Positions 160 to 52,454 of a stretch of 64,000 bases of DNA are shown in pieces (within the stretch, counting starts at the first letter, position 1; each line of letters starts with the position of its first letter). The position numbers and the translations under genes are program-made. The notes beneath the pieces are model-generated. The model made no database searches and was not told the DNA's origin. It saw only the letters and a list, made by a program, of their open reading frames with translations. This DNA is from Leucoraja ocellata (lineage: Eukaryota), in NCBI GenBank assembly GCA_036785375.1, contig JAWMAR010000878.1, positions 372,001 to 436,000 on the forward strand. The letters run 5' to 3'.

Positions 160-347
160 TTTGCACAAGAAAAGGTCAAACAGCAAGAAGCCGGGACCTG
201 TGCCTGGCGTCAAACGTTCACCGTCCAACAGTTCAGTCAACAGTCTGAGTAGCTACATCAGCAACAGCAGCAATGTCAGCAACTCCTCCAAGCGCTCTCA
301 GCGCTCTCTGCACCTCAGCAGCAGCAGCGGCTGGCAGGAGCCCGTCG
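160..347 (+). pseudogene. SUN2: SUN2-like exon B (copy 1)
   Basis: Paralog of 23444-23622 with a 9-nt in-frame duplication. Confidence 0.7.
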
Positions 348-644
348 GTACGTGTCCGGGGTGAAAGCAGGGCACCGGCACATTTCTTTAGTCAGAGGCT
401 GGTGAATTAGTGTAATTCATTGCCACTGAAGGCTGTGGAGGCCAAGTCAGTCGATATATTTAAGGCAGAGATAGACAGATTCTTCATTAGTACAGGGGTT
501 ACGGGGAGAACGCAGGAGAATGGGGTCAGGAGGGAGAGATAGTTCTGCCATGGTGGAATGTCGGAGTAGACTTGATGGGCCGAATGGCCTAATTTTCCTC
601 CTATCACTTATGCTCTTTTGACATCAGTGTTCTTAAAGCCTTAA

Positions 645-3600
645 CCCTTCCCTCCAACATACTGGTTAAGGGCTTCTCCATGGTTTAAAGTACCGCGATC
701 ACTGGTGCACGTCGGACTCGTGCAACAGTATCTCAGTTTTAGTTGGAAACGAGCCCTTTGGCCCAACGAGTCCGCGCTGACCAGCGATCATCGCACAGCT
801 GCTGTGAGACTTTGCCTATCCCGCCGGGTGCTGGGAGGCGGACAGGAGAGGGGTGAGTGGAGGATGTTGGGGGTTGTGGGGGGTGAGTGGAGGATGTTGG
901 GGGGTGTGGGGGGGTGAGTGGAGGATGTGGGGGGGTGAGTGGAGGATGTTGGGGGTGCGGGGTGAACACCCCATTGCTGGGGTAGGGTGAGGTTGAGTGG
1001 GCTATTACAAGGCGCAGTTATCGGGACATGGGGTGGGTGTATGTGCTGTTACTGGGAAGGGGGTGAGGGACATGTAAGCGGGCTGACGGTTGGGAGGGTA
1101 AATTAAGTGGGTGGGGTGTGAGGGTCCCGTTACTGGGGCAGGTGAGGGGCTGTTCGTGAGGTGGGTTGTGGGTGGGCGAGTGGGCCGTGGACTGACACTG
1201 GGCAGGAGCTAAACGTGTTGTACAGATTTCCCAGATGCTGGGTTACATCAGGGGGACTGTTATTTGGGGCAGCTAATCNNNNNNNNNNNNNNNNNNNNNN
1301 NNNNNNNNNNNNNNNNNNNNNNNNNNNNNNNNNNNNNNNNNNNNNNNNNNNNNNNNNNNNNNNNNNNNNNNNNNNNNNNNNNNNNNNNNNNNNNNNNNNN
1401 NNNNNNNNNNNNNNNNNNNNNNNNNNNNNNNNNNNNNNNNNNNNNNNNNNNNNNNNNNNNNNNNNNNNNNCAAAATAGCAGTGTGATAATGGCCCCAACA
1501 ATTTCACTGGTGATTCCACAGAGAATCACAAGCATCTTGCTCTCTATGGGTCTGCTTGTAACTCACAATCGGTGCAGCAAAGCATAAGTGGATGGATTCC
1601 TCAGATGGTGGGCTTGCTGTGCGAGAGATTAAACAGACTGGACTTACAGTATATTCTCTGGAGTTTAGAAGAATGAGAGGTGATCTCATTGAAACATGCA
1701 ACGTTCTTGCTGGGCTTGAAAGACTAAAGGTAGAGATGATGTTTCCCCCCACTGTGGCGCCTAGTCGCAGGGGTCACAGTCTCAAAGTAAGGCAGCTCTG
1801 TTCAGGATTGTAAGGAAGAGACATCCTTTCACCTTGCTCAGGGCAGCACGGTGGCACAGCGGCAGAGTTGTTGCCTTACAGCGCCAGAGACCCGGGTTCG
1901 ATTCCGATTGCGAGTGGTGTCTTTACGGAGTTTGTATGTTCTCCCCGTGACCCTCGTGAGTTTTCATAAGGTCATAAGTGATAGGAGCAGAATTAGGCCA
2001 TTCGGCTCATCAAGTCTACTCCGCCATTCAATCATCTATCCAACCCTCCTAANNNNNNNNNNNNNNNNNNNNNNNNNNNNNNNNNNNNNNNNNNNNNNNN
2101 NNNNNNNNNNNNNNNNNNNNNNNNNNNNNNNNNNNNNNNNNNNNNNNNNNNNNNNNNNNNNNNNNNNNNNNNNNNNNNNNNNNNNNNNNNNNNNNNNNNN
2201 NNNNNNNNNNNNNNNNNNNNNNNNNNNNNNNNNNNNNNNNNNNNNNNNNNNNNNNNNNNNNNNNNNNNNNNNNNNNNNNNNNNNNNNNNNNNNNNNNNNN
2301 NNNNNNNNNNNNNNNNNNNNNNNNNNNNNNNNNNNNNNNNNNNNNNNNNNNNNNNNCCTCCAACCCTTTCCTCCAACATACTGGTTAAGGGCTTCTCATT
2401 GGTTTAAAGTACCGCGATCACTGGTGCACGTCGGACTCGTGCAACAGTATCTCAGTTTTAGTTGGAAACGAGCCCTTTGGCCCAACGAGTCCGCGCTGAC
2501 CAGCGATCATCGCACAGCTGCTGTGAGACTTTGCCTATCCCGCCGGGTGCTGGGAGGCGGACAGGAGAGGGGTGAGTGGAGGATGTTGGGGGTTGTGGGG
2601 GGTGAGTGGAGGATGTTGGGGGGTGTGGGGGGGTGAGTGGAGGATGTGGGGGGGTGAGTGGAGGATGTTGGGGGTGCGGGGTGAACACCCCATTGCTGGG
2701 GTAGGGTGAGGTTGAGTGGGCTATTACAAGGCGCAGTTATCGGGACATGGGGTGGGTGTATGTGCTGTTACTGGGAAGGGGGTGAGGGACATGTAAGCGG
2801 GCTGACGGTTGGGAGGGTAAATTAAGTGGGTGGGGTGTGAGGGTCCCGTTACTGGGGCAGGTGAGGGGCTGTTCGTGAGGTGGGTTGTGGGTGGGTGAGT
2901 GGGCCGTGGACTGACACTGGGCAGGAGCTAAACGTGTTGTACAGATTTCCCAGATGCTGGGTTACATCAGGGGGACTGTTATTTGGGGCAGCTAATCNNN
3001 NNNNNNNNNNNNNNNNNNNNNNNNNNNNNNNNNNNNNNNNNNNNNNNNNNNNNNNNNNNNNNNNNNNNNNNNNNNNNNNNNNNNNNNNNNNNNNNNNNNN
3101 NNNNNNNNNNNNNNNNNNNNNNNNNNNNNNNNNNNNNNNNNNNNNNNNNNNNNNNNNNNNNNNNNNNNNNNNNNNNNNNNNNNNNNNNNNNNNNNNNNNC
3201 ACTCTGACTCAAAATAGCAGTGTGATAATGGCCCCAACAATTTCACTGGTGATTCCACAGAGAATCACAAGCATCTTGCTCTCTATGGGTCTGCTTGTAA
3301 CTCACAATCGGTGCAGCAAAGCATAAGTGGATGGATTCCTCAGATGGTGGGCTTGCTGTGCGAGAGATTAAACAGACTGGACTTACAGTATATTCTCTGG
3401 AGTTTAGAAGAATGAGAGGTGATCTCATTGAAACATGCAACGTTCTTGCTGGGCTTGAAAGACTAAAGGTAGAGATGATGTTTCCCCCCACTGTGGCGCC
3501 TAGTCGCAGGGGTCACAGTCTCAAAGTAAGGCAGCTCTGTTCAGGATTGTAAGGAAGAGACATCCTTTCACCTTGCTCAGGGCAGCACGGTGGCACAGCG

Positions 3601-3792
3601 GCAGAGTTGTTGCCTTACAGCGCCAGAGACCCGGGTTCGATTCCGATTGCGAGTGGTGTCTTTACGGAGTTTGTATGTTCTCCCCGTGACCCTCGTGAGT
3701 TTTCATAAGGTCATAAGTGATAGGAGCAGAATTAGGCCATTCGGCTCATCAAGTCTACTCCGCCATTCAATCATCTATCCAACCCTCCTAAN
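645..3792 (+). repeat. Near-identical tandem duplication (645-2052 / 2357-3792) broken by N gaps; probable assembly artefact
   Basis: Near-identical copies with gaps starting at the same internal positions. Confidence 0.8.
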
Positions 3793-5651
3793 NNNNNNNN
3801 NNNNNNNNNNNNNNNNNNNNNNNNNNNNNNNNNNNNNNNNNNNNNNNNNNNNNNNNNNNNNNNNNNNNNNNNNNNNNNNNNNNNNNNNNNNNNNNNNNNN
3901 NNNNNNNNNNNNNNNNNNNNNNNNNNNNNNNNNNNNNNNNNNNNNNNNNNNNNNNNNNNNNNNNNNNNNNNNNNNNNNNNNNNNNNNNNNNNNNNNNNNN
4001 NNNNNNNNNNNNNNNNNNNNNNNNNNNNNNNNNNNNNNNNNNNNNNNNNNNNNNNNNNNNNNNNNNTGCCATTTGACGACACAAACTCCCCCTGCATAAC
4101 ACCTGTTCAGCAAGGTGTGGAAAGTGATGCAGCTTCTGCTAAAGAGCATCGTTCCATTCCAATCTCCAGGTTGTATCAGCAGCAACTCCCTGTGTATCCA
4201 TCCACTTAAAATCATGAAGGAATCCACTTCCTGCAGCGTTTTGGAGATAATATTCTGGATCCTGTCAGTATTGATGCTGTGACCTCTGTTTATTGATCCC
4301 TCAATAGCAAATCCTCTCTCGTGTAAAACCCTGCTACAATCTTCAACGTTTGATAGGTCATCTCTTTTACCTTCTCTGTTCCGAGAGGACTCCTAACTTT
4401 TCCAAATTACTCTTTACTGTAATTCTAGACACTCTCTAAATCAATTCTTCGGCTTGAAGTCTGAAGAAGGGTCCCCACCCGAAACATCACCCATCCTTTT
4501 TCAGACAGAGATGCTGCCTGACCCGCTGAGTTACTCCAGAACTTTGTGTCTATCTTAGGCTTTTGACATCCTTCCTTTAATTTAGTTTAGAGATACAGCG
4601 TGGAAACAGGCCCTTCGGCCCACCGAGTCGGCACCGATCAGCGATCCCCGCACACTAACAGTTGAGCCGTGGGCCGATCAGTTGCATGGTGCTTTTGTGA
4701 ACAGCACCACAAACATTGGGCCATGTGACCCTTTGAACATTGTAAACCTTGAGAGAGAAGTTTGCTTTGTTGACATCTTGCTCTTCTTTCCCACCCCCCA
4801 GGTTTGGCGTACTCTGAATTGTTCTCTCCCCTTGCCAAGCTGTGGGGCTGGATCTCGCTGCTGTCTCCAGGTACCTGCATTAGTAATCTTCCCTCTTCTG
4901 TGGTCCATGGCCCCACAACTCTGCTCCAGTCAACCAGTGCCCTGCTGATACTGGACCCAGTGGTGAGGTACAGCCCGCTGCTCTCTCCTTAAACTCCCAG
5001 GGTTTGCACAAGGCCTGGTCCCCAGTGCTCTGTTGTTCATGCAGCCTAAGGACCACAGTCAGTGCAGGAGGAAGCCACCTTCCAGCTTGGTACTCCAGTG
5101 TGTTCCCTCAGCCTGACTGGGTCACTCACTGAGATGAGTGGTGAGTTGCCCAGAGGACCATAGAGTCAAGAGACGACTGACTGTCAATGCTCGGTTACTC
5201 GAGGCCAACTGAAGTCATGTTGTAACACCTAAGGGAGGCCTGGTTTGTGCTCCAGGATCACTGGGTTGATGAAAGAATAGGATCCCCTTTAGAATAAATC
5301 TAGATCTCTCTAACTTCAAGTAATCCTCTCTCTCCGTCCCTCCCCCTCCTTTGTCATTGTACTAGTTTCACTGTCGTCCTGGTGAGTTTCATTGTCTGTA
5401 TCATTCGTTAACACCGAGCCCACAGCCAACCAACAATGGACCCTTTCCTTCATCATCGTTACTTTTTTGCACATCGTTCATTCATTTGTTCCATGTCTCT
5501 CTACATCACCGTCTATATCGCTTGTTTCCCTTTCCCCTGACTCTCAGTCTGAAGAAGGGTCTGTGTTGGAGAGTCTGAGCTTTCTCCGCTTCCACTGATG
5601 TGAAGCATCGGGGCCCAACGTTGTCTAATATTGTGTTGCTGTCTCTTTCAG

Positions 5652-5745
5652 AAAAAGCTCTGCCCCTGGTGTACTGGTGGTTGGGCACAGCCTGGTACCA
5701 GTTAACAACGGCCATCTCCTTGATCGATGTCTTTACTCTGCCCAG
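5652..5745 (+). pseudogene. SUN2: SUN2-like WW exon (copy 1)
   Basis: KALPLVYWWLGTAWYQLTTAISLIDVFTLPR with AG/GT boundaries. Confidence 0.85.
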
Positions 5746-5974
5746 GTATATGCTCCGGGGATCCACAGACTCCATTCCTCCACCTGGTCACACCCATCCC
5801 CACTGCCTCCTCCATCTCCTCCCCACCTCTGTACTGAACACACCCTCCCACAGGACACCCAGTCACACTGAACCACCGATAAATAGACAATAGACCATAG
5901 GTGCAGGAGTGGGCCATTCAGCCCTTCAAGCCAGCAATGTGATCATGGCTGATCATCCACATTAAGTACCCCGG

Positions 5975-7440
5975 TCAGAATCGGCAGGTGAAAGGCAGAG
6001 ATCGAGGAAGGAGTGTTGGTTTAAACTGCACGTAAAGGGGCCTGACGGGGAAGGCAGATGAGCTGAGGGCATGGATAGGTACGAGCGACTGGGACCTTGT
6101 AGCCATGTCTGAAACCTGCTTAAGGGAGGGGCAAGACTGGCAGCTCAATGTTCCCAGGGTACAGGAGCTTCAGGGCAGACAGGGGTGAGGGAAAAAGAGG
6201 AGGGGGGTTGCATTGCTGGGTAAGGAGGATGTCACGGCAGTGTTCAGAGGTGACATTACGGACGGTTCCTTTAGTGAGGCTATATGGGTGGAGCTGAGGA
6301 ACAAGAAAGGGATGATCGCCTTGTTAGGGGTGTACTACAGACACCCGAATAGTCAATGGGAATTAGAAGAACAAATGTGCCAGGAGATTGCAGACAGCTG
6401 CTGGTCAAATAAGGTTGTTGTAGTAGGGGATTTTAACTTTCCCAATATAGACTGGGGAAATCATAGCGTGAAGGATTTAAATGGGGTGCAATTCCAAACG
6501 TGTTGAGGAGAGTTTTCTTAAACAGTATGTGGAGGCCCCCACACGTGAGAGGGCAACACTGGATCTTGTATTGGGAAATTGGGAAGGCAAGTTAATGAAG
6601 TGTGTGTGGAGGAGCCTTTTGGGTCCAGTGACCACAGTTCGATTAGGTTTAAGATTTAATACAGAGATGTGTGAGTTGTTGCATTTTGGGACATTGAACA
6701 AGGGTAGGACCCACACAGTAAATGGTAGGGCTCTGGGTAGTGTTGTAGAGCAGAGGGATCTAGGAGTATAGGTTCATGGTTCCTTGAGGATCAAGTCGCA
6801 CGTAGATAAGGTGGTCAAAAAGGATTTGGCACATTGGCCTTCATCAGTCAGAGATTTGATTGTGGAAACTGGGAGGTCATGTTGCAGTTGTATAAGACGT
6901 TGGTGAGACCGCATTTAGAATATTGCATTCAGTTTGGGGCACCATGTTATAGGGAAAATTTTGTCAAGCTTGAAAGGGTTCAGAGAAAATTTACGAGAAT
7001 GTTGCCAGGACTCGAGGTTGTGAGCTATGGGGAGAGGTTGAGTAGGCTGGGTCTCTATTCCATGGAGCGCAGCAGCATGAGGGGAGATCTTATAAAGGTA
7101 TTCAAAATCATGAGAGGAATAGATTGGGTAGATGCACAGTTTCTTGCCCAGAGTAGGGGAATCGAGGACCAGAGGACATATGTTCAAGGTGAAGGGGAAA
7201 AGATTTAATAGGTATCCGAAGGGTAACGTTTTCACACACAAGGTGGTGGGTGTATGGAACAAGTTGCCAGAGGAGGTAGTTGAGGCTGAGACTATCCCAT
7301 CGTTTTAAAATACAATTAGATAGGTACACGGATAGGACAGGTTTGGAGGAATATGGACTAAGTGCAGTCAAGTGGGACTAGTGTAGCTGGAACATTGTTG
7401 GTCGGTGTGGGCAAGTTGGGCCGAAAGGCCTGTTTCCAAA
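5975..7440 (+). mobile_element. CR1 LINE, internally deleted (APE + RT C-terminus + 3' UTR); paralog at ~27525-28990
   Basis: EAIWVELRNKKG, GDFNFPNIDW, PTRERATLDLVLGN, LYKTLVRPHLEYC motifs. Confidence 0.9.
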
Positions 7441-8149
7441 TTGTATCACTCTATGACTCTAGTCTGTGTAGGGTAGTGTTAGTGGGCGGGAATCGTTGGC
7501 CGGTGCTGACTAGGTGGGCCGAAGGGCCTGTTTCAGTGCTGCGTCTTTAAACTAAACTTAAAAAATGATAAACTATTTATTGTACCCCAGGTAAACCCAC
7601 CACAGGCCAACCCACTTGTAGTACCCCAGATAAACCCACTAGAAACAGAAATAAACATAGACAAATGGTGCAGGAGTAGGCCATTCGGCCGTTCGATCCA
7701 TGGACTACAAGATAGCCTGCCCACACTCTACCCCAGATACATCCACAGAACAGCCCTCTGATCCTGTACCCTAGGTTGACTAATCTTTGCACCAGTGTCA
7801 ACATGGCTCTGAGCTTTGAGTTTGTGAAGTGAAGGTCAGTCAGCAGCGTGGGTCCATGGAGGGGTCTGTCCATCTCTTGACCATAATCATTGACCTGATT
7901 CTGTCTGTTTGATGGGAGCATTCTATTTGCTTGAAACGTGTGTGACAAGGAACTGGAGATGGTGTTTTAAACCAATGATAGATACAAAAAGCTAGAGTAA
8001 CTCAGCGGGTGGGGCGCTCCCCTGGAGAGAAGGAATGGGTGACATTTCAGGACAACGCCCTTCTTCAGCCTCCAGAGATGCTGCCCGACCCACTGAGTTA
8101 CAGCGGCTTTTTCTATCCATCTCGCTTTTGATGGGGTTGGGTTCAATAG

Positions 8150-9795
8150 CCGGCAGCTTTAGCGTTTTCAATCCAAAGGCGGCTTTAGAGTTTTGAAACC
8201 AAAGGCAGCTTTAGCGTTTTGAAACCAAATCTTATAGAAAAATATAAAATTATAATATGACTGGACAAGCTAGATGCAGGAAAAATGTTCCCAATGTTGG
8301 GCAAGTTGTGAATTTATGGAATTCCCTGCCACTGAGGGCATTGGAAGCCAAGTCACTGGGTAGATTTAAGAGAGAGTTAGATAGAGCTATGGGGCCTAGT
8401 GCAGTCAATGATTATGGGGAGAAGGCAGGTATGGGTTATTGATAGGGGACGATCAGCCATGATCACAATGAATGGCGATGCTCAAAGGGACGAATGGCCT
8501 CCTCCAGCACCTATTTTCTATGTTTTAGCGTTTTCAAACCTTAGACAACTTTAGTGTTTTGAAACCAAAGGCGGCTTTAGCGTTTTGAAACCAAAGGCGG
8601 CTTTATTTGAGAAAGAGAACGTTAAATCGGAAGTGGCAGTGATGCAGTTGAACAAAGGGGACTATGAAGGCATGAGAGGGGAGCTGGCCAATGTAGACTG
8701 GAAAGTGATCCTAGCAGGAATGAAGGTGGAACGGCAATGGCAGGAATTTCTGGCCATAAACCGGAAGACGCAGGATCATTTCATTCTAAAAAGGAACAAA
8801 GATTCTAAGGGGAGTAGGAGGCAACCGTGGCTGACAAGAGAAGTCAGGGATAGAATAAAACTAAAAGAAAAGATGTATAACATAGCAAAGAGTAGCCGGA
8901 AGCCAGAGGATTGGGAAACTTTCAGAAGACAATAGAAGGAAACAAAACGGGCAATAAGGGCTGTAAAGATGAAATACGAAGGGAAGCTGTCCAGGAATAT
9001 AAAGAAGGACCGTAAAAGCTTCTTTAGATATATTAAGGGCAAATGCGTAGCAAAGTCAAATGTGGGTCCCTTGAAAGCAAACACGGGTGAAATTATTATG
9101 GGCAACAAGGAAATGGCAGAACAGTTGAATATGTACTTCGGATCTGTCTTCACTAAGGAAGACACAAACAATCTCACAGATGTACTGTAAGGGGGTAAAG
9201 GAACTGAAATAATTTTTCATAAGGCGAGGAATAGTATTGGGTAGGCGAATGGGACATTAGGATCTTATAGAAACATATAAAATTATAATATGACTGGACA
9301 AGCGAGATGCAGTAAAAATGTTCCCAATGTTGGGCGAGTCCAGAACCAGGGGCCACAGTCTTAGAATAAAGGGGAGGTCATTTAAGACTGAGGTGAGAAA
9401 AAACATTTTCTCCCAGAGAGTTGTGAATTTATGGAATTCCCTGCCACAGAGGGCAGTGGAAGCCAAGTCACTGGATGAACTTAAGAGAGAGTTAGATAGA
9501 GCTCTAAGGGCTAGTGGAGTCAAGGGATATGGGGAGAAGGCAAGGTACGGGTTATTGATAGGGGACGATCAGCCATGATGGCCTCCTCCGGCACCTATTT
9601 TCTATGTTTTAGTGTTTTCAAACCAAAGGTGGCTTTAGCTTTTTGAAATCAAAGGCAACTTTTGCATTTTGAAACCAAAGACGGCTTTATTTGAGAAGGA
9701 GCATGTTAATTCGGAAGTGGCAGTGATGCAGTTGAACAAAGGGGACTATGAAGGCATGGGAGGGGAGCTGGCCAATGTAGACTGGAAAGGGATCA
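8150..9795 (+). repeat. Tandem cassette of 25-26 bp minisatellite + deleted CR1
   Basis: Unit GGCAGCTTTAGCGTTTTCAAACCAAA repeats joined to CR1 fragments with shared junctions. Confidence 0.85.
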
Positions 9796-10199
9796 TTTCA
9801 TTGGAGGTCAGGATTAAACCGAGTCTCTGGCGCTGTGGGGCAGCAGCTCAACCAGCTACACCACTGTGCCCACCATTCTCTAATGCCAATTCAATCCAGT
9901 GGTGTCCACTACTGGGCAACAACAATCCTCCAGTTTTGATTTGTCTGCAGCTTCATCAGGGAAAGAGGGCCGGCAAGTTTAGGGAAAGCCCAGAAAGTCA
10001 ATGTTTTGTTTGTGGTGGTTTTAACCTTGGTGGTGTATGTGAAAGATGTGAATGAATTCCTCTGACTCTGTTTCTGAATGTGACATTCCCAAATGTCATC
10101 CAGTTCTCTGTGAAAAGACATTGATCGCCCGGGCCACTTCTAGACCAAAGCCTCGTCTAATTTTTCATGGTCAGCATTTTGCTCTGAGATATGTTTAAC

Positions 10200-10470
10200 T
10201 GTTGTATGTTCCTGTCTGTTCTGTTTGTGGACGGGCCTTGGATGTCCATGTAAGTGTACAACATCACGTGGCACAGTCAGGGAGTGTGACGTGGTCTGAA
10301 GTAGAGGTGCTGCTGTGCCAGTGGATTAAGAAGGGAGTCGATGTATTCTGCTACCCGACAGGATTCACTTCCACAGTCACATACAATGGGCCTTCCTGGA
10401 CGTATTTCCCCAGGTTCTGTCCACCTGTCCGGGTGTTTGTGTATTTTGGGGAAAATGTAGAATTTTTACA
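10200..10470 (-). mobile_element. Old Penelope-like RT fragment
   Basis: KFYIFPKIHK...PGRPIVCDCGSESCRVAEYIDSLLNPLAQ, a PLE RT N-terminal motif. Confidence 0.8.
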
Positions 10471-10789
10471 CCCGTGGTTCAAAGGTCTTTTATTGTCACA
10501 TTTACATTGATATGTAAATTATTCTCGGGTATTCTAATGGTTTGTGACAATGTGTGTATTCGCTCTGTGACCTGCGTGGGTTTACTCCAGGAGGTTCCGG
10601 TTTCCTCCCACACTCTTAAGACGTACAGGTTCGGAGGCTAATTGGCTTGGTATAAATGTTAATTGCCACTTGTGTGTGTAGGATTGTGTTAGTATGCGGG
10701 GATCGCAGGTCGGCGCTGGCCTGTTTCGCACTGTATAATTAACTGGATTTGATAAGGAAATTCGAGCCATAATATAATAAGTTTTAATC

Positions 10790-12860: not shown

Positions 12861-12899
12861 ATCTCTAAACTAAACATATAAATGCGCCATGATTGTTTT

Positions 12900-13190: not shown

Positions 13191-13204
13191 GTTTTTTAAT
13201 AGGA

Positions 13205-15227: not shown

Positions 15228-15750
15228 ATGTGTAGCAAGGAACTGCAGATACTGGTTTAAACTGAAGATAGACACATAAAGCTGGAGTAACTCAGTGGGA
15301 CAGGCAGCATGTCTGTAGAGAAGGAATGGACGTTTCGGATTGAGACAGTTCTTCAGACTGAAAGTCACGGGAAAGGGAAAGGAGAGATATAGATGATGAT
15401 GTAGAGAGATATAGAACAATGGATGAAAGATATGGAAAAAAAGTAACGATGATAAAGGAAACAGGCCACTGTTAGCTGTTTGCTGGGTGTAAACGAGAAG
15501 CTGGTGCGACTTGGGTGGGGGAGGGATGGAGAGAGAGGGAATACCGGGTTTACTTGAAGTTAGAGAAATCAATATTCTGGGCTGTAAGATGTCCAAGCGA
15601 AATATGAGATGCTGTTCCTCCAATTTGCGTTTAGCCTCACTCTGACAATGGAGGAGATCCCGGACAGAAAGGTCTGAGTGTGAATGGGGCAGAGAATTAA
15701 AGTGTTTATCAAGCGGGAGATCAGGTGGGTCCAGGCTGACTGAGCGAAGG
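15228..15750 (-). mobile_element. Penelope 3' end (GIY-YIG C-terminus + terminal repeat)
   Basis: KLEEQHLIFRL motif as in 36683-37018, followed by the CTGAAGAA...GAAACGTC tail. Confidence 0.8.
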
Positions 15751-15754
15751 TGTT

Positions 15755-16490
15755 GTGGGGTGGGTGTGGGAGTGGTGATGGGTTGGTAGGGGTGGTGGGA
15801 GTGATTGAAGGGTGGCAGGTAGTAATGGGGTTTGGGGGGTATAGCTGGTGGTGGTGTATGGGGGTAGTATCAGGGGATGGGGATGGTGGCGGGGGATGGG
15901 GTGTTGAGGATGGAGGGGAGTGGTGGTGAATGGTCGCTGGAGGTGTTGGGACAGATTGAGGTTGATGGGGGTTGCTGGGCGTTCGGGTTGGTGGGTGGTG
16001 CGGGGGGGATGGTGGGGGATGGTGGGTGGGGAGTGGCGGGGTGTGGCGCGAGGATGGAGGGGATGGGGGTGTGGAGTGGTGGGGGTGGGCGAGACTGGGG
16101 CGTGTGGAGGTTGGGCAGCGGGGGTGGATATGGTGGGGGGTGATGGGCATGGGGATGTCGGTCCAGTAGGTGGGAGTCAGGAAGTCGGGGTAGGGGTGGG
16201 AAGAGCTTTTGTGGGGTTGGAGGGTAGGTAATGGGAGAGTGGGGTGGGATGGGGGCATGGTGGTATGGCTGGTGCTGGTGTGTGATGGTCAGGGTGGTGA
16301 GGGTGTGTGAGTGTGGGGGTGGTGCTGTTATGTTGAGGTCAGGGTGGCGGAGATCAGGGTCAGGGTGGTGCTGCTGTTGTCAGGGTATTGGTGGTGTGAG
16401 GGTCAGGTTGGTGGAGGTGTAGGAGGTGAAAGAGTGTGAAGGTGTGGGAGGGGGGTGGTGCTGCTGTGATGGGGTCAGGAAGGGTCAATA
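15755..16490 (+). repeat. G/T-rich low-complexity tract
   Basis: GGT/GGG-rich simple sequence. Confidence 0.85.
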
Positions 16491-18930
16491 GTGGAATAGG
16501 TGCAGGAGTAGGCCATTCGGCCCTTTGAGCCAGCACCACCATTCACTGTGATCATGGCTGATCATCCACAGTCAGTACCCCGTTTCTGCCTTCTCCCCAT
16601 ATCCCTGGGCTCTGCTATCTTTAAGAACTCTAGCTAACTCTCTCCTGAAAGCCTCCAGAGAATTGGCCTCCACTGCCTTCTGAGGCAGAGAGTTCCACAG
16701 ATTCACAAGTCTGTGTGAAAAAGTTTTTCCTCATCTCCATTCCAAATGGCTTACCCCTTATTCTTGAACTGTGGCCCCTGGTTCTGGACTTTCCCAACAT
16801 CGGGAACATGTTTCTTGCGTCTAGCGTGTTCAAACCCTTAATTATCTTAAGGGCCTGTCCCACTTGGACGACATAATCCACGAGTTTAGAGGACCCTAGA
16901 CGAATTGATAAAAATGTCAAGGTCGTGTTGACTCGCTGAAGTACACGACCTCCTACGACCTCCTACGACTATGTGTACGACCTCTTACGACCCCCCTTGA
17001 CCTCAGTATTCCACACCTAAGACCAACTAAGACTAGCTACGAGTGGAAAATGATCTCCGGTCGGTGGGGGCGCTGCAAGCCGGCAGCCCTGCCAACAGCG
17101 TGTCAATTCTTTCTACTTTTTTTGGTTTTTTTAGTATGTCTTAATGTGGTTTTTAATGTTCCTCTGTGTGTCTTGTGTGGGGGGGGTAAGGGAGAAACCG
17201 CTTTGGTCGCCTCCTCCACGGAGAGGCGACTTTTTCCATGTTGCCTCCCCAGTGGCCTAACATCGAGGATCGGTGCGGCCTTTCCCAGAGACGCTTCAGC
17301 TGCGGGCGTATCGCGGACTTTCGGCGTGGAGCGCGCGTGACCTCGCTGGGGCTCGCCGGAGGGGAGCGCTCCGTTCGCTGACCCGCGGCAGCCTGAAGCC
17401 GCAGACTGCAGAGCTCCAGCTGGCACGGCGTCCGCAGCCTGGGATCCCTCGCTGGGGACCCGGGAGAAGAAGAAGCTCCGACTCCGTCCTGCACATCTGG
17501 ACGCCCACAGCAACGGCTGCGGAGGGTTGAGGTCCCGACCACGGGGGAAAATGGAGGAGGACTGGACAAATTTTGTGCCTTCCACCACAATGATGAATGC
17601 TGTGGTGGATGTTTGTATTGTATTGATTGATCAAGGTAAAATTATGTCATGTTTGCATTTTTATTCTCGGGCCAGTTACCGACCTACGACTATCTACCAC
17701 TATCTACCACTACCTACCACTATCTACCACTATCTACACTATCTACCACTATCTACCACTACCATCAGGTTCTACCTACGACCTGCCTACGAGTAAAAAT
17801 TATCCATTTGTTCCATGCCGACCTTTTTTTTTTACTCGTGGGCATTTTTTATCAGGCCTGAAAAAACGCAGCAACCTACTTGAGGCCACGAGTACGCGGA
17901 GACCACTCACGAGCATGAGGAAGAGTTACAAAGACCTCCTACGACCTAGTGGCGACCATGCTGCGAGTGTGAGTCAAGAGCAAACTCAGCAGAGGTCGCA
18001 AATTAGGTTGTGAAAGTGGGACAGGGATATGTTTCAATAAGACCCCTCTCATTCTTCTAAATTCCAGAGCATGCAAGCCCAGATGCTCCATTTTATCAAC
18101 ATATGCTATCCCAGGAATTAACCTGGTGACCCTGCGCTACACTCTCTCAATAGCAAGGATGTCCTTACTCAAATTTGGAGACCAAAACTACACACAATTC
18201 TCCAGGTATGTGCTATATAAATAAAACTTACTAGGTATGGTCTCACTAGTACAGCTGCAGAAGGACCTCTTTGCTCCTATACTCAACTTCTCTTGTTATG
18301 AAGGCTATCATGCAATTCACTTTCTTCACTTCCTGCTCTACCAATATACTTACTTTCAGTGACTGATGAACAAGGACCCCCAGGTCTCGTCGTACTTCCC
18401 CTTTTCCCAACTTGACACCATTTAGATAATAATCTTCCTTTCTGTTTTTGCTACCGAAGTGGAAAACCTCTCATTTATCCACATTAAACTGCATCTGCCC
18501 ACTCACCCAACCTGTCCAAGTCCACCCTGCATTCTCATAGCATCCTCCTCACAGTTCACACTGCCACCCAGCTTTCTGTCATCTGTAAATTTGCTAATGT
18601 TACTTTTAATCCCTTCATCTGAATCATTAATGCATATAGTAAATAGCTGCGGTCCCAGCACCGAGCCTTGCGGTATCCCACTAGTTATCCCTACTCTTTG
18701 TTTCCTGTCTACCAACCAATTTTCTATCCATGTCAGTATGCTACCCCCATACCATGCTCTCTAATTTTGCCCCCTAATCTCCTATGTGGGACATTATCAA
18801 ATACTTTCTGAAAGTCCAGGTACACTCCATCCACTGGCTCTCCCTTGTCCATTTTCCTAGTTACATCCTCAAAGAACTCTGACCGATCCTGCTACTGCTA
18901 CCCAAATGTGTCACTATTTCATCTTTTATA
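16490..18930 (-). mobile_element. CR1 LINE (minus), interrupted by a MITE at 16850-18027
   Basis: Minus-strand [24 protein letters not shown]1 3' UTR; CR1 sequence resumes after the insert. Confidence 0.85.
16850..18027. mobile_element. Non-autonomous TIR element (PIF/Harbinger-like MITE); another end at ~20060-20208
   Basis: Termini GGGCCTGTCCCACT...AGTGGGACAGG; internal CTACGAC and CTACCACTAT repeats. Confidence 0.65.
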
Positions 18931-18999
18931 GTCAGAGTGAGGCTATTGTGTGGAGGTGGGTATCAGGGAGGGTGGTGCTGGTTGGAACGTGGGGGTGAT

Positions 19000-20060
19000 G
19001 GTGCCGCAGTTGTCATGGTTCCTGTCCCCACCCCCCGGTGGGGTGGAGCCGCGACACAAACTAACACTCTAGAATGTAGCATTTTGAACGATGCAGACAA
19101 TGGGCAGCGGCACCGGGGGCGGGACATAGACACAGACACAGACAGACGGCGTTGGAGGAGGTCGTGTCTGGTGTCTGCTCTGCTCAGCTCAGCTATACTC
19201 TACCCTACCATCATCTACTATACTATATTATACTCTAGGTGCGGCGGGGACGGGTGGTGACCAGAAGGGGAGTGGGTGAAGTGGCCACGCTCCCGCTCCT
19301 TGTTCCCGGCGCCGCGGCGAAGCTTCTGCTGCTCGGACCACGCAGGGATCATCACTCGGTGAGTCTGTGTCTGTCGTGTCGGTCCCTGGCCCCGCACAGG
19401 TGACCGCTCCTCCCGGCGCCGGGGGCCCTGCGGACGGGGGCGGCTCCCAGCCTCACCCCCTTGACTGCCTCCCCTTAAACACCGACCCACGGCAGCGCTG
19501 TCAGAGCCCAGGGGCGCCGCACCGCTGAATGAACCAACCGTACACTTTAAAGACGTATTGTACAAGTTATTGCCATTTGTAACTTTACAAAAACGACTTT
19601 TAAAGCCGCTTCCACTTGCCCTGCCTGTCAATGACATCACGATGGAATCCCGAATCTCATTGACATTAAACATCGTGTGGGGTGGGATAGGGTAGAGGTG
19701 AGGAGTGGGGGAAGCAGGCAGGCAGGGAGAGGGGTTATGGAGGGAGGAAGGGAGTGACTGAGGGAGGGAGAGGTGATTGAGGGAGGAGGAGAGGGGAAAG
19801 AAGAGGGAAGGTGAAGGAAGATGCCTGGTGTGGGCCGAGCCTCGGGGCTGTAGCCGGGCCCGGGCTTTGGTCGCTGAGGAGTGGACACAGACACGGACTG
19901 GGCCCTGAGTGCGGCTCCGGGCCTTGGGCTGGGGTTCGAGCCGGTGTGGGGTCCGGGGGCTGCTGCTCCGAGCCCGTGGGCAGGGAGAGGAGCGGGACCT
20001 GGGACAAGAACCTCCCCCAGACCGCAGCCTCAGCCTCTCCCTCCCATGGCTCCAGACCTG
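19000..20060 (+). promoter_or_regulatory. CpG-island-like region with GC boxes and a candidate 5' exon ending at 19358
   Basis: High GC/CpG, GGGGCGGG box near 19115, consensus donor G|GTGAGT at 19359; lies 3.2 kb upstream of the SUN2 remnant. Confidence 0.5.
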
Positions 20061-21704
20061 TCGACACGTGACGCCTGTATGGTCGTGAATAGTCGTCCAA
20101 AGAGTCGTACCTTTTCCTGGTCGACGCTGGATCTTCAACGTGTTGAAAATGCGACTATGACGGGTGCCGGCAGTCGCAGAAAAAAATCGCGTGAGTGGGA
20201 CAGGCCCTTTAGACTGTTGAGGAAGCCTTGTTTATGGGCTCACAGTCAGGTGGGGGCTGTAAAGCTCCACTTGGTTCCAGTTGGATTGTCTGGTCCCTGT
20301 ATTGTCTTAGATAGACACAAAATGCTGGAGTAACTCTACAGGACAGGCAGCATCTCTGGAGAGAAGGAATGGGTGACGTTTCTGGTCTAGACGCTTCTTC
20401 AGACAAATACAGGGGAGTGGGAGGTACATAGATAAGGAAGTGTATAGACAAGGAAATCTATAAGTGTATAGATAAGGATATCTCCCACTCTCCTGACATC
20501 AGTCTGAAGAAGGATCTCGACAAGAAACGTCACCCATTCCTTCGCTCCAGTGATGATGCCTGGCCCGCTGAGTTTCTCCAGCATTTTGTGTCCATCTTTG
20601 GTGTAAAGCAGCATCTGCAGTTCCTTCCTACACAAGCCATGTGGACAGGCCGGTGGGGGTGAGTAGGAGGGGTTGGGGGTGCCATGTAAAATCACAAAGG
20701 ATTGTGAGTGAGGAGAAGTCATGAGTAAGGACGACAAGGTCACTGTGTTGACGGTGCAGGTTTAAAAGGGTGGCACGGTGGCGCCGTGTAGTGTTGGTCA
20801 CATTTGTTCCGAAACAAAGAAGGAAGCAGATCTGGTGAAATTTCTCAAAGAAACTGGAGAAATTATGGAAATGGAATGGGTTTACTGGTCAGTGGGGGAA
20901 GAGCGAGGGGCAGGGGGATTGGTGATTGGTCAAGCATTTGTGACTATCTTCCGTTCAGGCAGTGGGCGTAGGTTAGACATTTGATACAGCAAGGTATAAC
21001 TAGTCCCAAAAACGTGCAGATTTGTAGGTTTATTGGCCTCTGTAAATTGTCCCTAGTGTGTAAGGGAGTGGATGTGAAAATGAGGTTGTTATGGGGAGAA
21101 GGCGGGAGAATGGAGATGATGGGGAAAGATAGATCAGCCATGATTGAATGGTGTAGTAAATGATGCAGTGTTGTGGCAATCTTTGCCAGTTGTCACGTGG
21201 CCTGTGCCTTGTGTTGTCTGAGATGTTATCTGCTGTTTGGGCACAGCCTCACGTGTTGAATGGAAGCAGTGTTGGCCCTGCAGCTGGTGTTGGCTGGCGC
21301 TAGCCAGTTGAAAAGCAAAACGCGCAGATGCTAGAAGTCCGAAATGAAAACGGGAGACGCGTTGTAGGCTTTGTAGGTCTGACCCCATTAATGTGTCAGG
21401 TCACCGACCCTCCATTGAAAGAGACATAAAACAGAGAAACAGGCCCTTCAGCCCTACTCCTCGTCCATGCTGACAAAAGAGCCTTCCCAGTCTGTTCCCA
21501 TTTGCCTGTGTTTGGCCCATATCCCTCTAAACCTTTCCAATCCATATCCCTCACCAAACATTGTTTAAACACTAAATCACCTCCTCTGGCAGTTCGTTCC
21601 ATGTCCCCTCCACTCTCTGTTGGAAAGGTTGCCCCTCAGGTTGCCTGTAAAATCATTCTCCTGTCACCCACGCCTCTGTCCCCTAGTTGTAGATTCCCCG
21701 ATAA

Positions 21705-22554
21705 TAGGTGCAGGAGTAGGCTATTCGGCCCTTCAAGCCAGCACCGCCATTCAATGTGATCATGGCTGATCTTCCACAATCAGTACCCAGTTCCTGCCTT
21801 CTCCCCATATTCCCTAACTCCTCTATCTTCAAGAGCACTATCTAGCTCTCTCTTGAAAGGATCCAGTGAACCGGCCTCCGCCGCCCTGTGAGACAGAGAA
21901 TTCCACAGACTCACAACTCTGTGTGAAAAAGTGTGTCCTCATCTTCGTTCTAAATGGCTTACCCTTTATTCTTAAACTGAGGCCCCTGGTTCTGGACTCA
22001 CCGAACATCTTGAACATGTTTCCTGCCTCTAGCGTGTCCAAACCCTTAATAATCTTATATGTTTCAATAAGATCCCCTTACATAGTTCTAAATTCCAGAG
22101 TGTACAAGCCCAGCCGCTCCATTCTCTCAGCACATACGCCATCCCGGGAATTAACCTTGTGAACCTACGTTGCACTCCCTCAATAGCAAGAATGTCCTTC
22201 CTCAAATTTAGAGATCAAAACTCCACACAATACACCAGGTATGGTCTCACTAGGGCCCGGTACAACTGCAGAACAACTTTACTCTAATACTCAACTCGTC
22301 TTCTTATGAAGGTCAACATGCCATTTGCTTTCATCACTGCCTGCTTTATCTGCATGCTTACTTTCATTGACTGATGAACAAGGACCCCAAATCCCATTGA
22401 ACATCCCCTTTTCCCAACTTGACACCATTTAGATAATTTGCCTTCTCGTTTTTGTGACCAAAGTGGATAACCTCACATTAAACTGCATCTGCTATGCATC
22501 TGCCCACACACCCAACTTGTCCAAGTCACCCTGCATTCTCATAGCATCCTCCTC
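21705..22554 (-). mobile_element. CR1 3' portion abutting the SUN2 remnant
   Basis: Minus-strand RT C-terminus and 3' UTR. Confidence 0.88.
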
Positions 22555-22664
22555 AGTCCACGTTTGGCCACCAACGGCTACAACCAGCACAACGACGACG
22601 CCTCCAGCAGCAGCGGTGGCTCCACCAAATCCAGCGCTCCCTCTTACATGGAGACTCCCGTCAG
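22555..22664 (+). pseudogene. SUN2: SUN2-like first coding exon remnant (start codon region replaced by antisense CR1)
   Basis: SPRLATNGYNQHNDDASSSSGGSTKSSAPSYMETPVR resembles the SUN2 N-terminus (MSRRSQRLTRYSQGDDDGSSSSGGSS...KDSPLR); phase-2 donor AG|GTGTGT. Confidence 0.75.
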
Positions 22665-23443
22665 GTGTGTCTCTCTAACTCTCTCTTGTCTCGTTCTCCC
22701 CCCCCCCCCCCCCTCTCCCTCTCGTTCTTTCCTCCCTAAGCTATGCTCCTTTCTAACAGTAAAGATGCAGCCTCCACCCTCGTTCCTCACTCAGGGAGCT
22801 GTGTATCACAATTCCAACCCTCCGCCCACCCCCCCTTCCCTCTCCTCCCGCAGCACGGCCTCCCCTCCCAATCGCCCCCCTCCCTCCCGCCCATTCCTCC
22901 CGCCCCCTAACCCCAACTGAACCTTTCCCCACAGGACAAAACCTCAAGGAAAGTTCCAACAGCCTCTTCTTTCCTGCTTGGAATCTCAGGTGGAGGATGA
23001 TTGGATGTAGGGTATAACTTCCATAGGCCAAGGGCAGGGTTGCCGTGCCAATAAGTTGTTGATCAAGCCATTCGTTTGATGGGCTCATGAGGGATGTTAG
23101 AGGGAACGTGAACAGGCGCTGTCTGACCCGCTGAGATACTCCAGCACTTTGTGACTTTTTTATAAACCAGCATCTGCAGTTCCTTGAGGAGGGGGAGAGG
23201 GAGAGAGAGAGAATCATGATATTCCTTCCCCGTGAGAACCAATCTTCTCCCCCCCCCCCCCCCTTTCCTAGCTCTGACAAGCGACTCTCTCCATCCCTCC
23301 CCTACCCAAGTCGCACCAGCTTCTCATTCTCATTTAGCAAATGGCTAACAATGGCCAGTTTCCTTTATCATTGTTACTTTTTTGCTTCTCTTTCGCAGTC
23401 CTGGTCTGCCTCCGTCCTAAATCATTGCCCTTTATCGTTTCAG

Positions 23444-23622
23444 GTTGCACAAGAAAAGGTCAAACAGCAAGAAGCCGGGACCTGTGCCTGGTGTCAAACG
23501 TTCACCGTCCAACAGTTCAGTCAACAGTCTGAGTAGCTACATCAGCAACGTCAGCAACGTCAGCAACTCCTCCAAGCGCTCTCTGCACCTCAGCAGCAGC
23601 AGCGGCTGGCAGGAGCCCGTCG
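23444..23622 (+). pseudogene. SUN2: SUN2-like exon B (copy 2)
   Basis: TTTCAG acceptor; (R)LHKKRSNSKKPGPVPG...WQEPV resembles SUN2 RTLKRKSSNMKRLSPAP; phase 2-1, in frame with the previous exon; GTACGT donor. Confidence 0.7.
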
Positions 23623-26600
23623 GTACGTGTCCGGGGTGAAAGCAGGGCACCGGCACATTTCTTTAGTCAGAGGCTGGTGAATTAGTGTAATTCATTGCCA
23701 CTGAAGGCTGTGGAGGCCAAGTTAGTCGATATATTTAAGGCAGAGATAGACAGATTCTTCATTAGTACAGGGGTTACGGGGAGAACGCAGGAGATTGGGG
23801 TCAGGAGGGAGAGATAGTTCTGCCATGGTGGAATTTCGGAGTAGACTTGATGGGCCGAATGGCCTAATTCTCCTATCACATGCTCTTTCGACATCAGTGT
23901 TCTTAAAGCCTTAACCCTTCCCTCCAACATACTGGTTAAGGGCTTCTCCTTGGTTTAAAGTACCGCGATCACTGGTGCACGTCGGAGACTCGTGCAACAG
24001 TATCTCAGTTTTAATTGGAAACGAGCCCTTTGGCCCAACGAGTCCGCGCTGACCAGCGATCATCGCACAGCTGCTGTGAGACTTTGCCTATCCCGCTGGG
24101 TGCTGGGAGGCGGACAGGAGAGGGGTGAGTGGAGGATGTTGGGGGGTGTGGGGGGTGAGTGGAGGATGTGGGGGGGTGGGGTGAACACCCCATTGCTGGG
24201 CTGGGGCAGGGTGAGGTTGAGTGGGCTATTACAAAGCGCAGGTATCGGGACATGGTGTGGGTGTATGTGCTGTTACTGGGAAGGGGGTGAGGGACATGTA
24301 AGCGGGCTGACGGTTGAGAGGGTAAATGAAGCGGGTGGGGTGTGAGGGTCCCATTACTGGGGCAGGTGAGGGGCTGTTCATGAGGTGGGCTGTGGGTGGG
24401 TGGGTGAGTGGGCTGTGGACTGACACTGGGCAGGAGCTGAACGTGTTGTACAGGATTGTAGATTTCACACTCTCACGCACGCACTCTCAAGATTCAATTT
24501 AATTGTCATTTGGACCCCTTGAGGTCCAAACGAAATGCCGTTTCTGCAGCCATACGTTACAAACAAATAGACTCAAGACACAACATAATTTACATAAACA
24601 TACATAAAGGCCAAAAAAACGTATCTCTCCACTGCACTCTCCCCCCCCCCGATGTCAAAGTCAAAGCCCCCGGCTGGCGATGGCGATTGTCCCGCGGCCA
24701 TTAAAGGCACGCCGGGTGATGCAAGGTCGCACACCGGGTCTTGGTGTTAAAGCCCCCGGCGTGCGCTCGCAGAGTCCCGCGGCCATTCCAAGCCGCGCGG
24801 GGTGATGATGTCAGGCCCCGCTCCAGGAGCACTTCGACCCCGCAACTCGGGTGGGAGAAGTCGCCGTTGCGAGAGCCCTGAAAAGCGGTGTCCCTCCAGG
24901 GACCCGCGGGCTCCCGGTGCCGCCGTCCGCCAGATCCTCAGTTGCAGCCTCCGAATCTCTGGAGGTCGGGCCGCAGCAGCAGCAGCGCTCAACCACCGCT
25001 CCACCCGCTCCGGACTCGGCCAGCTCCGCGACGGTGAGGTGAGTCGTCGGCACCAGAGTCCCCGGTCTTCTCCTGTTGGAGGCTGCTCCTCGTTGCAACC
25101 CCAACGACAACGTTCAGCAAGGTGTGGAAAGTGATGCAGCTTCTGCTAAAGAGCATCGTTCCATTGCAATCTCCAGGTTGTATCAGCAGCAACTCCCTGT
25201 GTATCCATCCACTTAAAATCATGAACGAATCCACTTCCTGCAGCATTTTGGAGAGAATATTCTGGATCCTGTCAGTATTGATGCTGTGACCTCTGTTTAT
25301 TGATCCCTCAATAGCAAATCCTTTCTCGTGTAAAACCCTGCTACAATCTTTAACGTTTGATAGGTCATCTCTTTTACCTTCTCTGTTCCGAGAGGACTCC
25401 TAACTTTTCCAAATTACTCTTTACTGTAATTCTAGACACTCTCTAAATCAATTCTTCAGCTTGAAGTCTGAAGAAGGGTCCCCACCCGAAACATCACCCA
25501 TCCTTTTTCAGACAGAGATGCTGCCTGACCCGCTGAGTTACTCCAGAACTTTGTGTCTATCTTAGGCTTTTGACATCCTTCCTTTAATTTAGTTTAGAGA
25601 TACAGCGTGGAAACAGCCCCTACGGCCCACCGAGTCGGCACCGATCAGCGATCCCCGCACAGTAACAGTTGAGCCGTGGGCCGATCAGTTGCATGGTGCT
25701 TTTGTGAACAGCACCACAAACATTGGGCCACATGACCCTTTGAACATTGTAAACCTTGAGAGAGAAGTTTGCTTTGTTGACATCTTGCTCTTCTTTCCCA
25801 CCCCCCAGGTTTGGCGTACTCTGAATTGTTCTCTCCCCTTGCCAAGCTGTGGAGCTGGATCTCGCTGCTGTCTCCAGGTACCTGCATTACTAATCTTCCC
25901 TCTTCTGTGGTCCATGGCCCCAAAACTGTGCTCCAGTCAACCAGTGCCCTGCTGATACTGGACCCAGTGGTGAGGTACAGCCCGCTGCTCTCTCCTTAAA
26001 CTCCCAGCGTTTGCACAAGGCCTGGTCCCCAGTGCTCTGTTGTTCGTGCAGCCTAAGGACCACAGTCAGTGCAGGAGGAAGCCACCTTCCAGCTTGGTAC
26101 TCCAGTGTGTTCCCTCAGCCTGACTGGGTCACTCACTGAGATGAGTGGTGAGTTGCCCAGAGGACCATAGAGTCAAGAGACGACTGACTGTCAATGCTCG
26201 GTTACTCGAGGCCAACTGAAGTCATGTTGTAACACCTAAGGGAGGCCTGGTTTGTGCTCCAGGATCACTGGGGTGATGAAAGAATAGGATCTCCTTTAGA
26301 TTTCCCCAGCTGTGTGGCACCGAGGATGCTTTTGAAATGTAGTGTAAGGTGGTGGACCGTGGCCAAGCTCGCACACAGCATTGTGATCAGCAGACGCCCA
26401 TGTTCAATAAATCTAGATCTCTCTAACTTCAAGTAACCCTCTCTCTCCGTCCCTCCCCCTCCTTTGTCATTGTACTAGTTTCACTGTCGTCCTGGTGAGT
26501 TTCATTGTATGTATCATTCGTTAACACCGAGCCCACAGCCAACCAACAATGGACCCTTTCCTTCATCATCGTTACTTTTTTGCACATCGTTCATTCATTT

Positions 26601-26661
26601 GTTCCATGTCTCTCTACATCACCGTCTATATCGCTTGTTTCCCTTTCCCCTGACTCTCAGT

Positions 26662-26689
26662 CTGAAGAAGGGTCTCGACCCGAAACGTC
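26662..26689 (+). ncRNA. Minimal hammerhead-ribozyme-like motif (best-preserved copy)
   Basis: CTGAAGA-A-[GGGT CTCG ACCC]-GAAAC-GTC with palindromic ACGT in place of stem III. Confidence 0.6.
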
Positions 26690-26993
26690 ACCTATTCCTT
26701 TTCTCCAGAGATGCTGCCTGTCCAGCTGAGTTACTCCAGCTTTTTGTGTCTATCTTTGCCCATGGTGGTTGTGGGATAAGATTGACTGGGACAGAGGGGG
26801 CTGCTATCCATCCACAACCAGGCAATCTCTCTGTGTTGAAATGTGATACTCCCTGCTCGGTGGAAGTGTAATTGACAATCTCCCGTTTATTTAGTCTGGA
26901 CACAAAAGGAGGCCATTCGGCCCATCGTGGCCTCTGGAGTACCCCCATCAGTGCGGTTGCCTGTTGATATCCCTGCAACCTATTTTTTCTTAG

Positions 26994-27101
26994 GTTCCCT
27001 AAAGCTCCCCTGGGTTCTCCTGCACCAGCTTGCGGTGGACTTTCTGTGGTGGTCCCTGCAGGGGAGAAGGTCTCTCAGCCTGACGTGGTTCCACAGTATC
27101 A
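26994..27101 (+). pseudogene. Candidate SUN2-like exon upstream of the WW exon (deleted in copy 1)
   Basis: Strong acceptor TTTTTTCTTAG; 108 nt phase 1-1 open exon GSLKLPWVLLHQLAVDFLWWSLQGRRSLSLTWFHSI; GTGCGT donor; 98 nt intron to next exon. Confidence 0.5.
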
Positions 27102-27199
27102 GTGCGTTCCGTGTTGGAGAGTCTGAGCTCTCTCCGCTTCCACTGATGTGAAGCATTGGGGCCCGTTGTTGTCTAATATTGTGTTGCTGTCTCTTTCAG

Positions 27200-27293
27200 A
27201 AAAAGCTCTGCCCCTGGTGTACTGGTGGTTGGGCACAGCCTGGTACCAGTTAACAACGGCCATCTCCTTGATCGATGTCCTTACTCTGTCCAG
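27200..27293 (+). pseudogene. SUN2: SUN2-like conserved hydrophobic (WW) exon (copy 2)
   Basis: KALPLVYWWLGTAWYQLTTAISLIDVLTLSR vs human SUN2 LLYWWAGTTWYRLTTAASLLDVFVLTR; TTTCAG/GTACGT boundaries, phase 1-2. Confidence 0.85.
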
Positions 27294-47911: not shown

Positions 47912-47949
47912 CATGACCTTAACGTCATCGGACACCCGAGCGCGCAATG

Positions 47950-52381: not shown

Positions 52382-52383
<2 letters not shown>

Positions 52384-52448: not shown

Positions 52449-52454
<6 letters not shown>

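Follow-up and report, generated by a model that had tools for sequence, protein, structure and literature searches.

We analysed a stretch of 64,000 nucleotides from the skate Leucoraja ocellata (assembly GCA_036785375.1, contig JAWMAR010000878.1, positions 372,001 to 436,000 of the forward strand), hereafter called the window. It contains two tandem 5' fragments of the SUN2 gene (copies 1 and 2) and an immunoglobulin M (IgM) cluster. SUN2 is a component of the LINC complex (linking nucleoskeleton to cytoskeleton) of the inner nuclear membrane; its N-terminus binds lamins, and it is normally one conserved gene. Assignment of the exon peptides to the SUN2 N-terminus, made in a first-pass annotation of the sequence, was confirmed by TBLASTN of skate SUN2 models (E down to 1e-31, with 75-96% amino acid (aa) identity for exon-only matches). 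That annotation was also right that the SUN2 fragment points at the IgM cluster: copy 2 and the cluster, which is on the minus strand, converge and are 24,047 bp apart. Features are collected in Table 1, where exon numbers are inferred from the 674-aa SUN2 model of Amblyraja radiata.

Table 1. Features of the window. LINE and SINE, long and short interspersed nuclear element; V, D and J, variable, diversity and joining segments; CH, heavy-chain constant exon; TM, transmembrane; UTR, untranslated region; o/e, observed/expected.
Feature	Position	Strand	Remarks
Copy 1 of duplicated unit	1..9794	+	Left end beyond window; at the right end a CR1 piece adjoins a SINE-like tail
Copy 1 exon 3 equivalent	160..347	+	First base unlike copy 2; 9 bp longer
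Copy 1 exon 6 equivalent	4802..4870	+	Not in the first-pass exon list
Copy 1 exon 7 equivalent, hydrophobic segment	5652..5745	+	Last SUN2 exon of copy 1
CpG island around SUN2 exon 1	19000..20000	+	GC 0.59-0.63, CpG o/e 0.61-0.75
Copy 2 exon 1, non-coding	19239..19358	+	AG before, GT at 19359
CR1 LINE, 5'-truncated	21704..22555	-	Decayed reverse-transcriptase C-terminus and tail; 5' end fused to SUN2 codon 5
Copy 2 exon 2 remnant	22555..22664	+	Codons 5-41; acceptor, part of 5' UTR and ATG-bearing codons 1-4 gone
Copy 2 exon 3 equivalent	23444..23622	+	AG/GT ends, TBLASTN
High-copy element, truncated	24454..25111		At the site where copy 2 lacks an intron stretch present in copy 1
Copy 2 exon 6 equivalent	25809..25877	+	TBLASTN, piece scan; not in the first-pass exon list
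Copy 2 exon 7 equivalent	27200..27293	+	Last SUN2 exon; frame open 49 codons into intron, then stop
Spacer between SUN2 and IgM	29701..51339		CR1, L2-like and Penelope-like remnants, 3.4-kb decamer satellite
Mosaic of 26-bp minisatellite and CR1 pieces, locally repeated	29705..33589		Repeat comparison; likely holds 3' breakpoint of SUN2 unit
IgM cluster	51340..64000	-	V (leaves window), D1, D2, J, CH1-CH4 with secretory tail, TM1, TM2

The exon 3 and exon 7 equivalents of both copies have AG/GT ends and compatible phases. The first-pass exon list thus stood for these four exons; it erred in its start at 22555 and overlooked one coding exon per copy, the exon 6 equivalent, as well as exon 1 of copy 2 and the lack of exons 4-5 there. 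With the exon 6 equivalent included, conceptual splicing gives 150 codons for copy 2 and 116 codons for copy 1, with no stop in either. The coding part of copy 2 is identical to the skate parent, XP_032869440.1, at 122 of 144 aa. Exons 4-5 are missing from copy 2, the two peptide pieces that cover them having no match in the window. At the truncated high-copy element of copy 2, 1,615 mapped RNA reads continue beyond 25112 into different sequence. A joint at 26927-27483, considered as a deletion of exon 7, was set aside as a likely artefact of a CR1 tail. Copy 1 leaves the window at its left end and holds four N gaps, which places its 5' part and exons 4-5 outside judgement.

We next consider what the fragments lack. 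Briefly, 44 overlapping 30-aa pieces of the 674-aa skate SUN2 were compared with both strands of the window. Ten matched clearly, all before residue 210, and none of the 31 pieces from residue 196 onward matched either strand at E<1e-3, the best of them (E 0.003, 9 aa) falling inside a satellite. Together with TBLASTN, this bears out the earlier statement that the window has no transmembrane, coiled-coil or SUN-domain exon. Pfam, which places the Sad1_UNC (SUN) domain at residues 539-671 of the full-length model only, found nothing in the five window peptides, and Rfam gave 0 matches. Since 4067-53676 is free of N, the missing 3' exons are not concealed by a gap. The features of a functional SUN2, namely a SUN domain, a transmembrane exon with luminal coiled coil and the native MSRR start, are all absent from the window. 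Copy 2 would not be expected to make a LINC protein, as it lacks both membrane anchor and SUN domain. A retrocopy (processed pseudogene) was rejected, introns and promoter exon being retained; retained introns combined with disabling lesions are what is found in unprocessed pseudogenes.

One lesion is at the start of copy 2. Homologues with a native start begin with MSRRS, and in TBLASTN the window sequence begins at the final S. The AG at 22555, which had been read as an exon boundary, is the beginning of the Ser5 codon; scored as an acceptor with a rough matrix, it reaches -1.6 bits, versus 2.7 to 9.8 bits for five other SUN2 acceptors. In read mapping, loose contig ends were found at 21703 and 22555, the edges of an antisense CR1 element, and 229 and 198 contigs of two skate DNA runs track the window to 22555, then continue as LINE. 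The truncated 5' end of the CR1 is therefore fused to codon 5, with loss of the acceptor and the ATG. Position 22555 marks a breakpoint; as a cryptic acceptor it would be weak at best. To judge from the junction, this fusion could have arisen by the CR1 insertion event or by a later deletion. No MSRR start was found in any of the six frames of the window, the start of copy 1 lying outside it; the single in-frame ATG of the exon 2 remnant is near its end and comes from a K-to-M change.

Exon 1 is retained upstream of this breakpoint. It matches the start of the A. radiata model P0044 (LOC116982966) at 37 of 41 aa (E 9e-23), has no ATG, and carries a TGA at 19258-19260 in the exon 2 frame. The CpG island around it is likely the copied SUN2 promoter. 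A contig that is probably RNA (depth 8.43) was placed at both 19340 and 23473, with pieces ending at 19358 and 23442, and is likely one spliced contig joining exon 1 to exon 3. In a polyA run, five of eight molecules end at 19361. P0044 itself joins exon 1 to the codon-5 junction as in the window, and then to a second exon 3; its locus likely has tandem pieces as well.

Two side observations were also made. The segment 13089-13167 (plus strand) is exon-like, with strong acceptor and donor, and was the sole new candidate on the rough matrix. Its one open frame with an ATG shares the phase of SUN2 exon 1, whose TGA closes it, and its peptide has no Pfam match. A CpG-rich 1.2-kb element with terminal inverted repeats lies at ~16850-18025, likely a non-autonomous DNA transposon, and an end related to it is found at ~20040-20200, in SUN2 intron 1.

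The two fragments belong to a duplicated unit, in which 1-9794 matches 23285-31249 in blocks. Six of the seven blocks show 0.7-3.4% substitution; the last, which is rich in repeats, shows 5.8%. The copies are further set apart by reciprocal deletions of 105 bp, 432 bp and >1 kb. Being longer than 1 kb and more than 90% identical, the unit is a segmental duplication; it contains SUN2 exons and transposon debris, and zero Ig sequence. Its 3' breakpoint, whose position we infer, likely lies in the minisatellite-CR1 mosaic. Between the coding parts of the copies there are 5 non-synonymous changes (260 sites) and 2 synonymous ones (79 sites), which appears close to neutral, with no sign of purifying selection, the changes being too few for a test. 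At the right end of both copies (8152-9794 and 29705-33589), the 26-bp minisatellite, linked to the same CR1 piece, is repeated several times, with 89-95% identity.

Could this arrangement be an assembly artefact, with two haplotypes or collapsed paralogues set side by side, or a misjoin within the CR1 mosaic that cost the 3' exons? A clear artefact pattern exists nearby: between N gaps, the small contigs at 643-1278 and 1471-2052 appear again at 2362-2997 (4 differences) and 3210-3791 (0 differences), which is likely a scaffolding duplication (copy 1 exons 4-5 could lie in the N gaps of 643-3791). The spacer also has young CR1 copies 93-95% alike, and no sequencing run contained half of the words of 22400-24460. 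However, the divergence and the reciprocal deletions between the copies exceed allelic expectation, and separate assemblies of two species contain similarly truncated models. We consider an artefact very improbable.

SUN2 proves to be a family in skates. With a 44-aa query around the last exon, all ten matches (from 23 candidates) were SUN2 or SUN2-like proteins of A. radiata and Leucoraja erinacea. The RefSeq family comprises 15 loci on 11 sequences (8 in A. radiata, 7 in L. erinacea), of which three are full length. The A. radiata models are on four sequences of 19.5, 46.8, 51.0 and 66.1 Mb; that of 19.5 Mb carries the parent and four more models, two of them with consecutive accessions and maybe a single locus. 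The L. erinacea loci are on 13.1-Mb and 170-Mb sequences and five small scaffolds. For these other copies, the analysis used protein models produced by automatic RefSeq annotation. A phmmer search of 1.84 billion representatives, whose clustering at 50% may conceal members, gave 47 matches, and the top six were five skate copies and a full-length Mobula SUN2. No named truncated SUN2 copy of another cartilaginous fish was found among the 19 of the 47 matches that have a name or source (one unnamed). We found no description of this expansion in the literature searched, a search that left subscription journals mostly outside, and there were 0 occurrences of SUN2 in the accessible part of the little skate genome preprint (10.1101/2022.03.21.485123), whose supplementary gene-family tables could list it.

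Truncation points vary between copies: the last exon is exon 7 in P0042 and exon 6 in P0045, both reading into intron that matches the window, and some other copies retain the SUN domain. In a tree of 17 rows and 177 columns (P0002 was excluded as too short), the parent is basal and 14 copies fall into four groups, three of them supported (96-98 bootstrap). Two of these three, plus the weak fourth, contain both genera. From this topology, the expansion is likely older than the split between Amblyraja and Leucoraja, and SUN2 has likely been amplified in skates into at least four subfamilies. One L. erinacea copy, P0017 on the 13.1-Mb sequence, is a mosaic. Compared with the A. radiata parent, it has 41/41 identical aa in exon 2 and 323/328 in the C-terminus, and its exons 6-7 have 56/56 aa identical to a paralogue versus 51/56 to the parent; this reflects either gene conversion or a chimeric assembly.

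Copy number was estimated from contig depth in two skate datasets. Dividing summed depth by contig number gives the minimum for the deepest contig, which served as a floor. The exon 3 site had floors of 1,418x and 2,418x, exon 1 ~2,000x and the region near exon 7 ~600-700x; intron sites went as high as 4,524x. Thirteen contigs from individual LINE loci had 17-44x. If the top of this range is assumed to be the single-copy level, the floors become 46-54 copies for exon 1, 32-67 for exon 3, 16 close to exon 7 and as many as 103-119 for introns, the exon values being safer as the intron sites could contain an unrecognised repeat. This estimate suggests tens to over a hundred SUN2 copies in skates.

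Our preferred reading, to which we give a probability of about 0.62, is that a SUN2 duplicon has dispersed in skates and that the fragments are unprocessed pseudogenes belonging to it, which lost parts through deletions associated with repeats before a tandem duplication; they likely landed beside the IgM cluster with no role in the multiplication of immunoglobulin heavy-chain (IgH) clusters. SUN2 would have been copied as DNA before the Amblyraja/Leucoraja split, founding at least four subfamilies. Further rounds of copying would then have spread the copies, likely through recombination or template switching at repeats of the CR1 and SINE kinds, with parts lost each time. In the window lineage, a CR1-associated deletion may have taken the start of exon 2, and a local tandem duplication would finally have produced two copies, now ~1-3% apart.

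Several points weigh against it. The 150 and 116 codons have neither stop nor frameshift, few being expected at 2-3% divergence, and the non-synonymous/synonymous count is made of 7 changes only. As 48-90% of the region is repeated, breakpoints located in repeats are weak evidence. Support for placing the window copies with P0044 and P0045 (XP_055486544.1) is weak (83/83). Isoform labels on some truncated models of L. erinacea suggest, given how the RefSeq pipeline assigns them, that these are transcribed. Summed depth is not a copy number, the single-copy level is assumed, and library types are unrecorded. Finally, the chance of at least one SUN2-IgM pair within 25 kb genome-wide is 0.02-0.45 (with assumed counts and an assumed 2.5-Gb genome), so that adjacency mildly favours a real association, without establishing it.

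The open frames and isoform labels would also suit a selected family of truncated copies, transcribed from the copied CpG promoter, whose anchorless or short SUN2 N-termini compete for lamins or other nucleoplasmic partners. The promoter exon is retained, and the in-frame ATG of exon 2, present in P0044 and P0045 too, predicts a protein of ~168 aa by read-through into the intron; moreover, subfamilies persist in two genera. Yet the native ATG of copy 2 is gone, the cryptic acceptor scores low, the ratio of non-synonymous to synonymous changes is near neutral, and truncation points differ among copies. In the polyA run, the exon 3 site 23473 had 0 reads and exon 6 was thinly covered; the data were 6% of one run, which may come from another species. 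Read mapping resolved no copy-specific RNA. Selection on such products seems improbable to us.

The proximity of the IgM cluster had led to the interpretation that a 5' SUN2 fragment, captured with IgH, could mark how the clusters were amplified. What holds is that 5' pieces of SUN2, with introns and promoter retained, have been duplicated as DNA. Both the capture with IgH and the marking of cluster amplification are unsupported: the duplicated unit is without Ig, and SUN2 is multi-copy on at least four A. radiata sequences. In a stricter form, the fragment would have been captured once beside an IgM cluster and afterwards copied together with it as one amplification unit. One gapless stretch, 4067-53676, does contain both copy 2 and the IgM transmembrane exons, and the odds of chance adjacency were given above. 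Estimated SUN2 copies are of the same order as IgM clusters in cartilaginous fish, which number tens to 200 and can spread over many chromosomes according to PMC5192425; the title of a work cited there describes Raja clusters as chromosomally dispersed.

Other evidence speaks against such co-amplification, beginning with a duplication in the window that leaves out Ig. Searches for IgM recovered a single skate RefSeq model. The 104.9-Mb A. radiata sequence on which it lies carries none of the eight SUN2 models of that species, a weak test with one IgM model. Five of the eight, parent included, are on the parent's own 19.5-Mb chromosome. Because other copies retain the SUN domain, the family is not a single frozen 5' capture. 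Many IgH clusters of four sharks and rays are grouped in one complex with TCR (T-cell receptor) alpha/delta, some Ig genes being elsewhere (PMC12227049). Such clustering, common to sharks and rays, therefore long predates the SUN2 expansion of skates, and no truncated SUN2 appeared there among the 19 of 47 named matches. SUN2 is not mentioned in the text or two supplements of PMC12227049, whose table covers Ig, TCR and marker genes and has no skate sheet, and we found nothing relevant in the literature searched on IgH flanks in skates or on SUN2 beside IgM in sharks. Co-amplification with IgM is unlikely in our view, and the position of the fragments beside the cluster is likely incidental.

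The boldest version of the duplicon idea would make SUN2 the core of an undescribed skate duplicon of at least 100 copies, still mobile, returning sequence to the working gene, making truncated lamin-binding proteins and co-moving with IgM clusters. We hold this combination to be unlikely.

The IgM cluster itself is germline-unjoined, with open frames, and its segments are 93-100% identical each to a little-skate IgM record. It has one V, two D and one J with 12/23 signals, CH1-4 and transmembrane exons; six recombination signals were located by script and the second signal of D2 by eye, V being partly in the window. A separate observation concerns the A. radiata model P0018 (LOC116974745), which fuses two tandem IgM constant regions and so indicates two IgM clusters in the same orientation on the 104.9-Mb chromosome. 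The linker between its two units has no convincing match in the window.

In the ~22-kb spacer, no host gene was recognised among 39 open reading frames (ORFs) of at least 100 aa. The element classes given here are provisional ones assigned from their translated ORFs, and repeat classes were read from the sequence. A degenerate decamer satellite of 3.4 kb, C-rich on the plus strand, occupies 37173-40620. A short inverted remnant of it lies at 41748-41845, with 16-bp and 28-bp minisatellites in between. The idea that the satellite is subtelomeric was dropped: it has 10 CCCTAA, versus 4.8 +/- 2.1 in 500 shuffles (maximum 11), and is not a telomere tract. A decayed, provisionally Penelope-like element with a GIY-YIG-like ORF lies at 35790-37060. 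A long L2-like reverse-transcriptase ORF at 48059-50400 is near the IgM 3' end, and an inverted piece of it, 94.8% alike, lies beside SUN2 copy 2 at 31543-32065, followed by a short stretch at 32066-32289 resembling a long terminal repeat (by eye).

The SUN2 expansion, rather than the IgH link, is the finding worth following. If true, tens to hundreds of intron-keeping SUN2 copies in skates would surprise specialists of the nuclear envelope and of shark genomes, and would offer a marker, itself datable, of segmental duplication in genomes that evolve slowly. Such copies confound SUN2 orthology, read mapping and "SUN2-like" models in skates, P0017 being an example. If SUN2 copies tracked IgH clusters, cluster multiplication would become directly testable; the tracking itself is without support here.

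Compared with known systems, the neighbour of the fragments is a canonical V-D-D-J-C elasmobranch IgM minicluster (PMC12227049). The fragments match exons 1-3, 6 and 7 of vertebrate SUN2, from which they differ by the lack of the ATG and exons 4-5 in copy 2, and of transmembrane segment, coiled coil and SUN domain. The RefSeq SUN2-like models, of which P0044 and P0045 are closest, belong to the same family, with shared diagnostic residues and intron read-through tails that match the window; in contrast to a described family, they are automatic annotations, and they have other truncation points. The nearest analogues may be the core duplicons of primates, for which we take families such as NPIP, GOLGA8, TBC1D3 and NBPF as comparison. 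As in these, many dispersed, lineage-specific copies of one gene core are found (15 loci, compared with one full-length SUN2 for Mobula), and the dispersed and tandem copies keep introns, are variably truncated and show signs of exchange with one another. Unlike them, the source here is a conserved, normally single-copy structural gene and the expansion likely predates the separation of two genera. Expressed copies under positive selection are a feature of the primate families.

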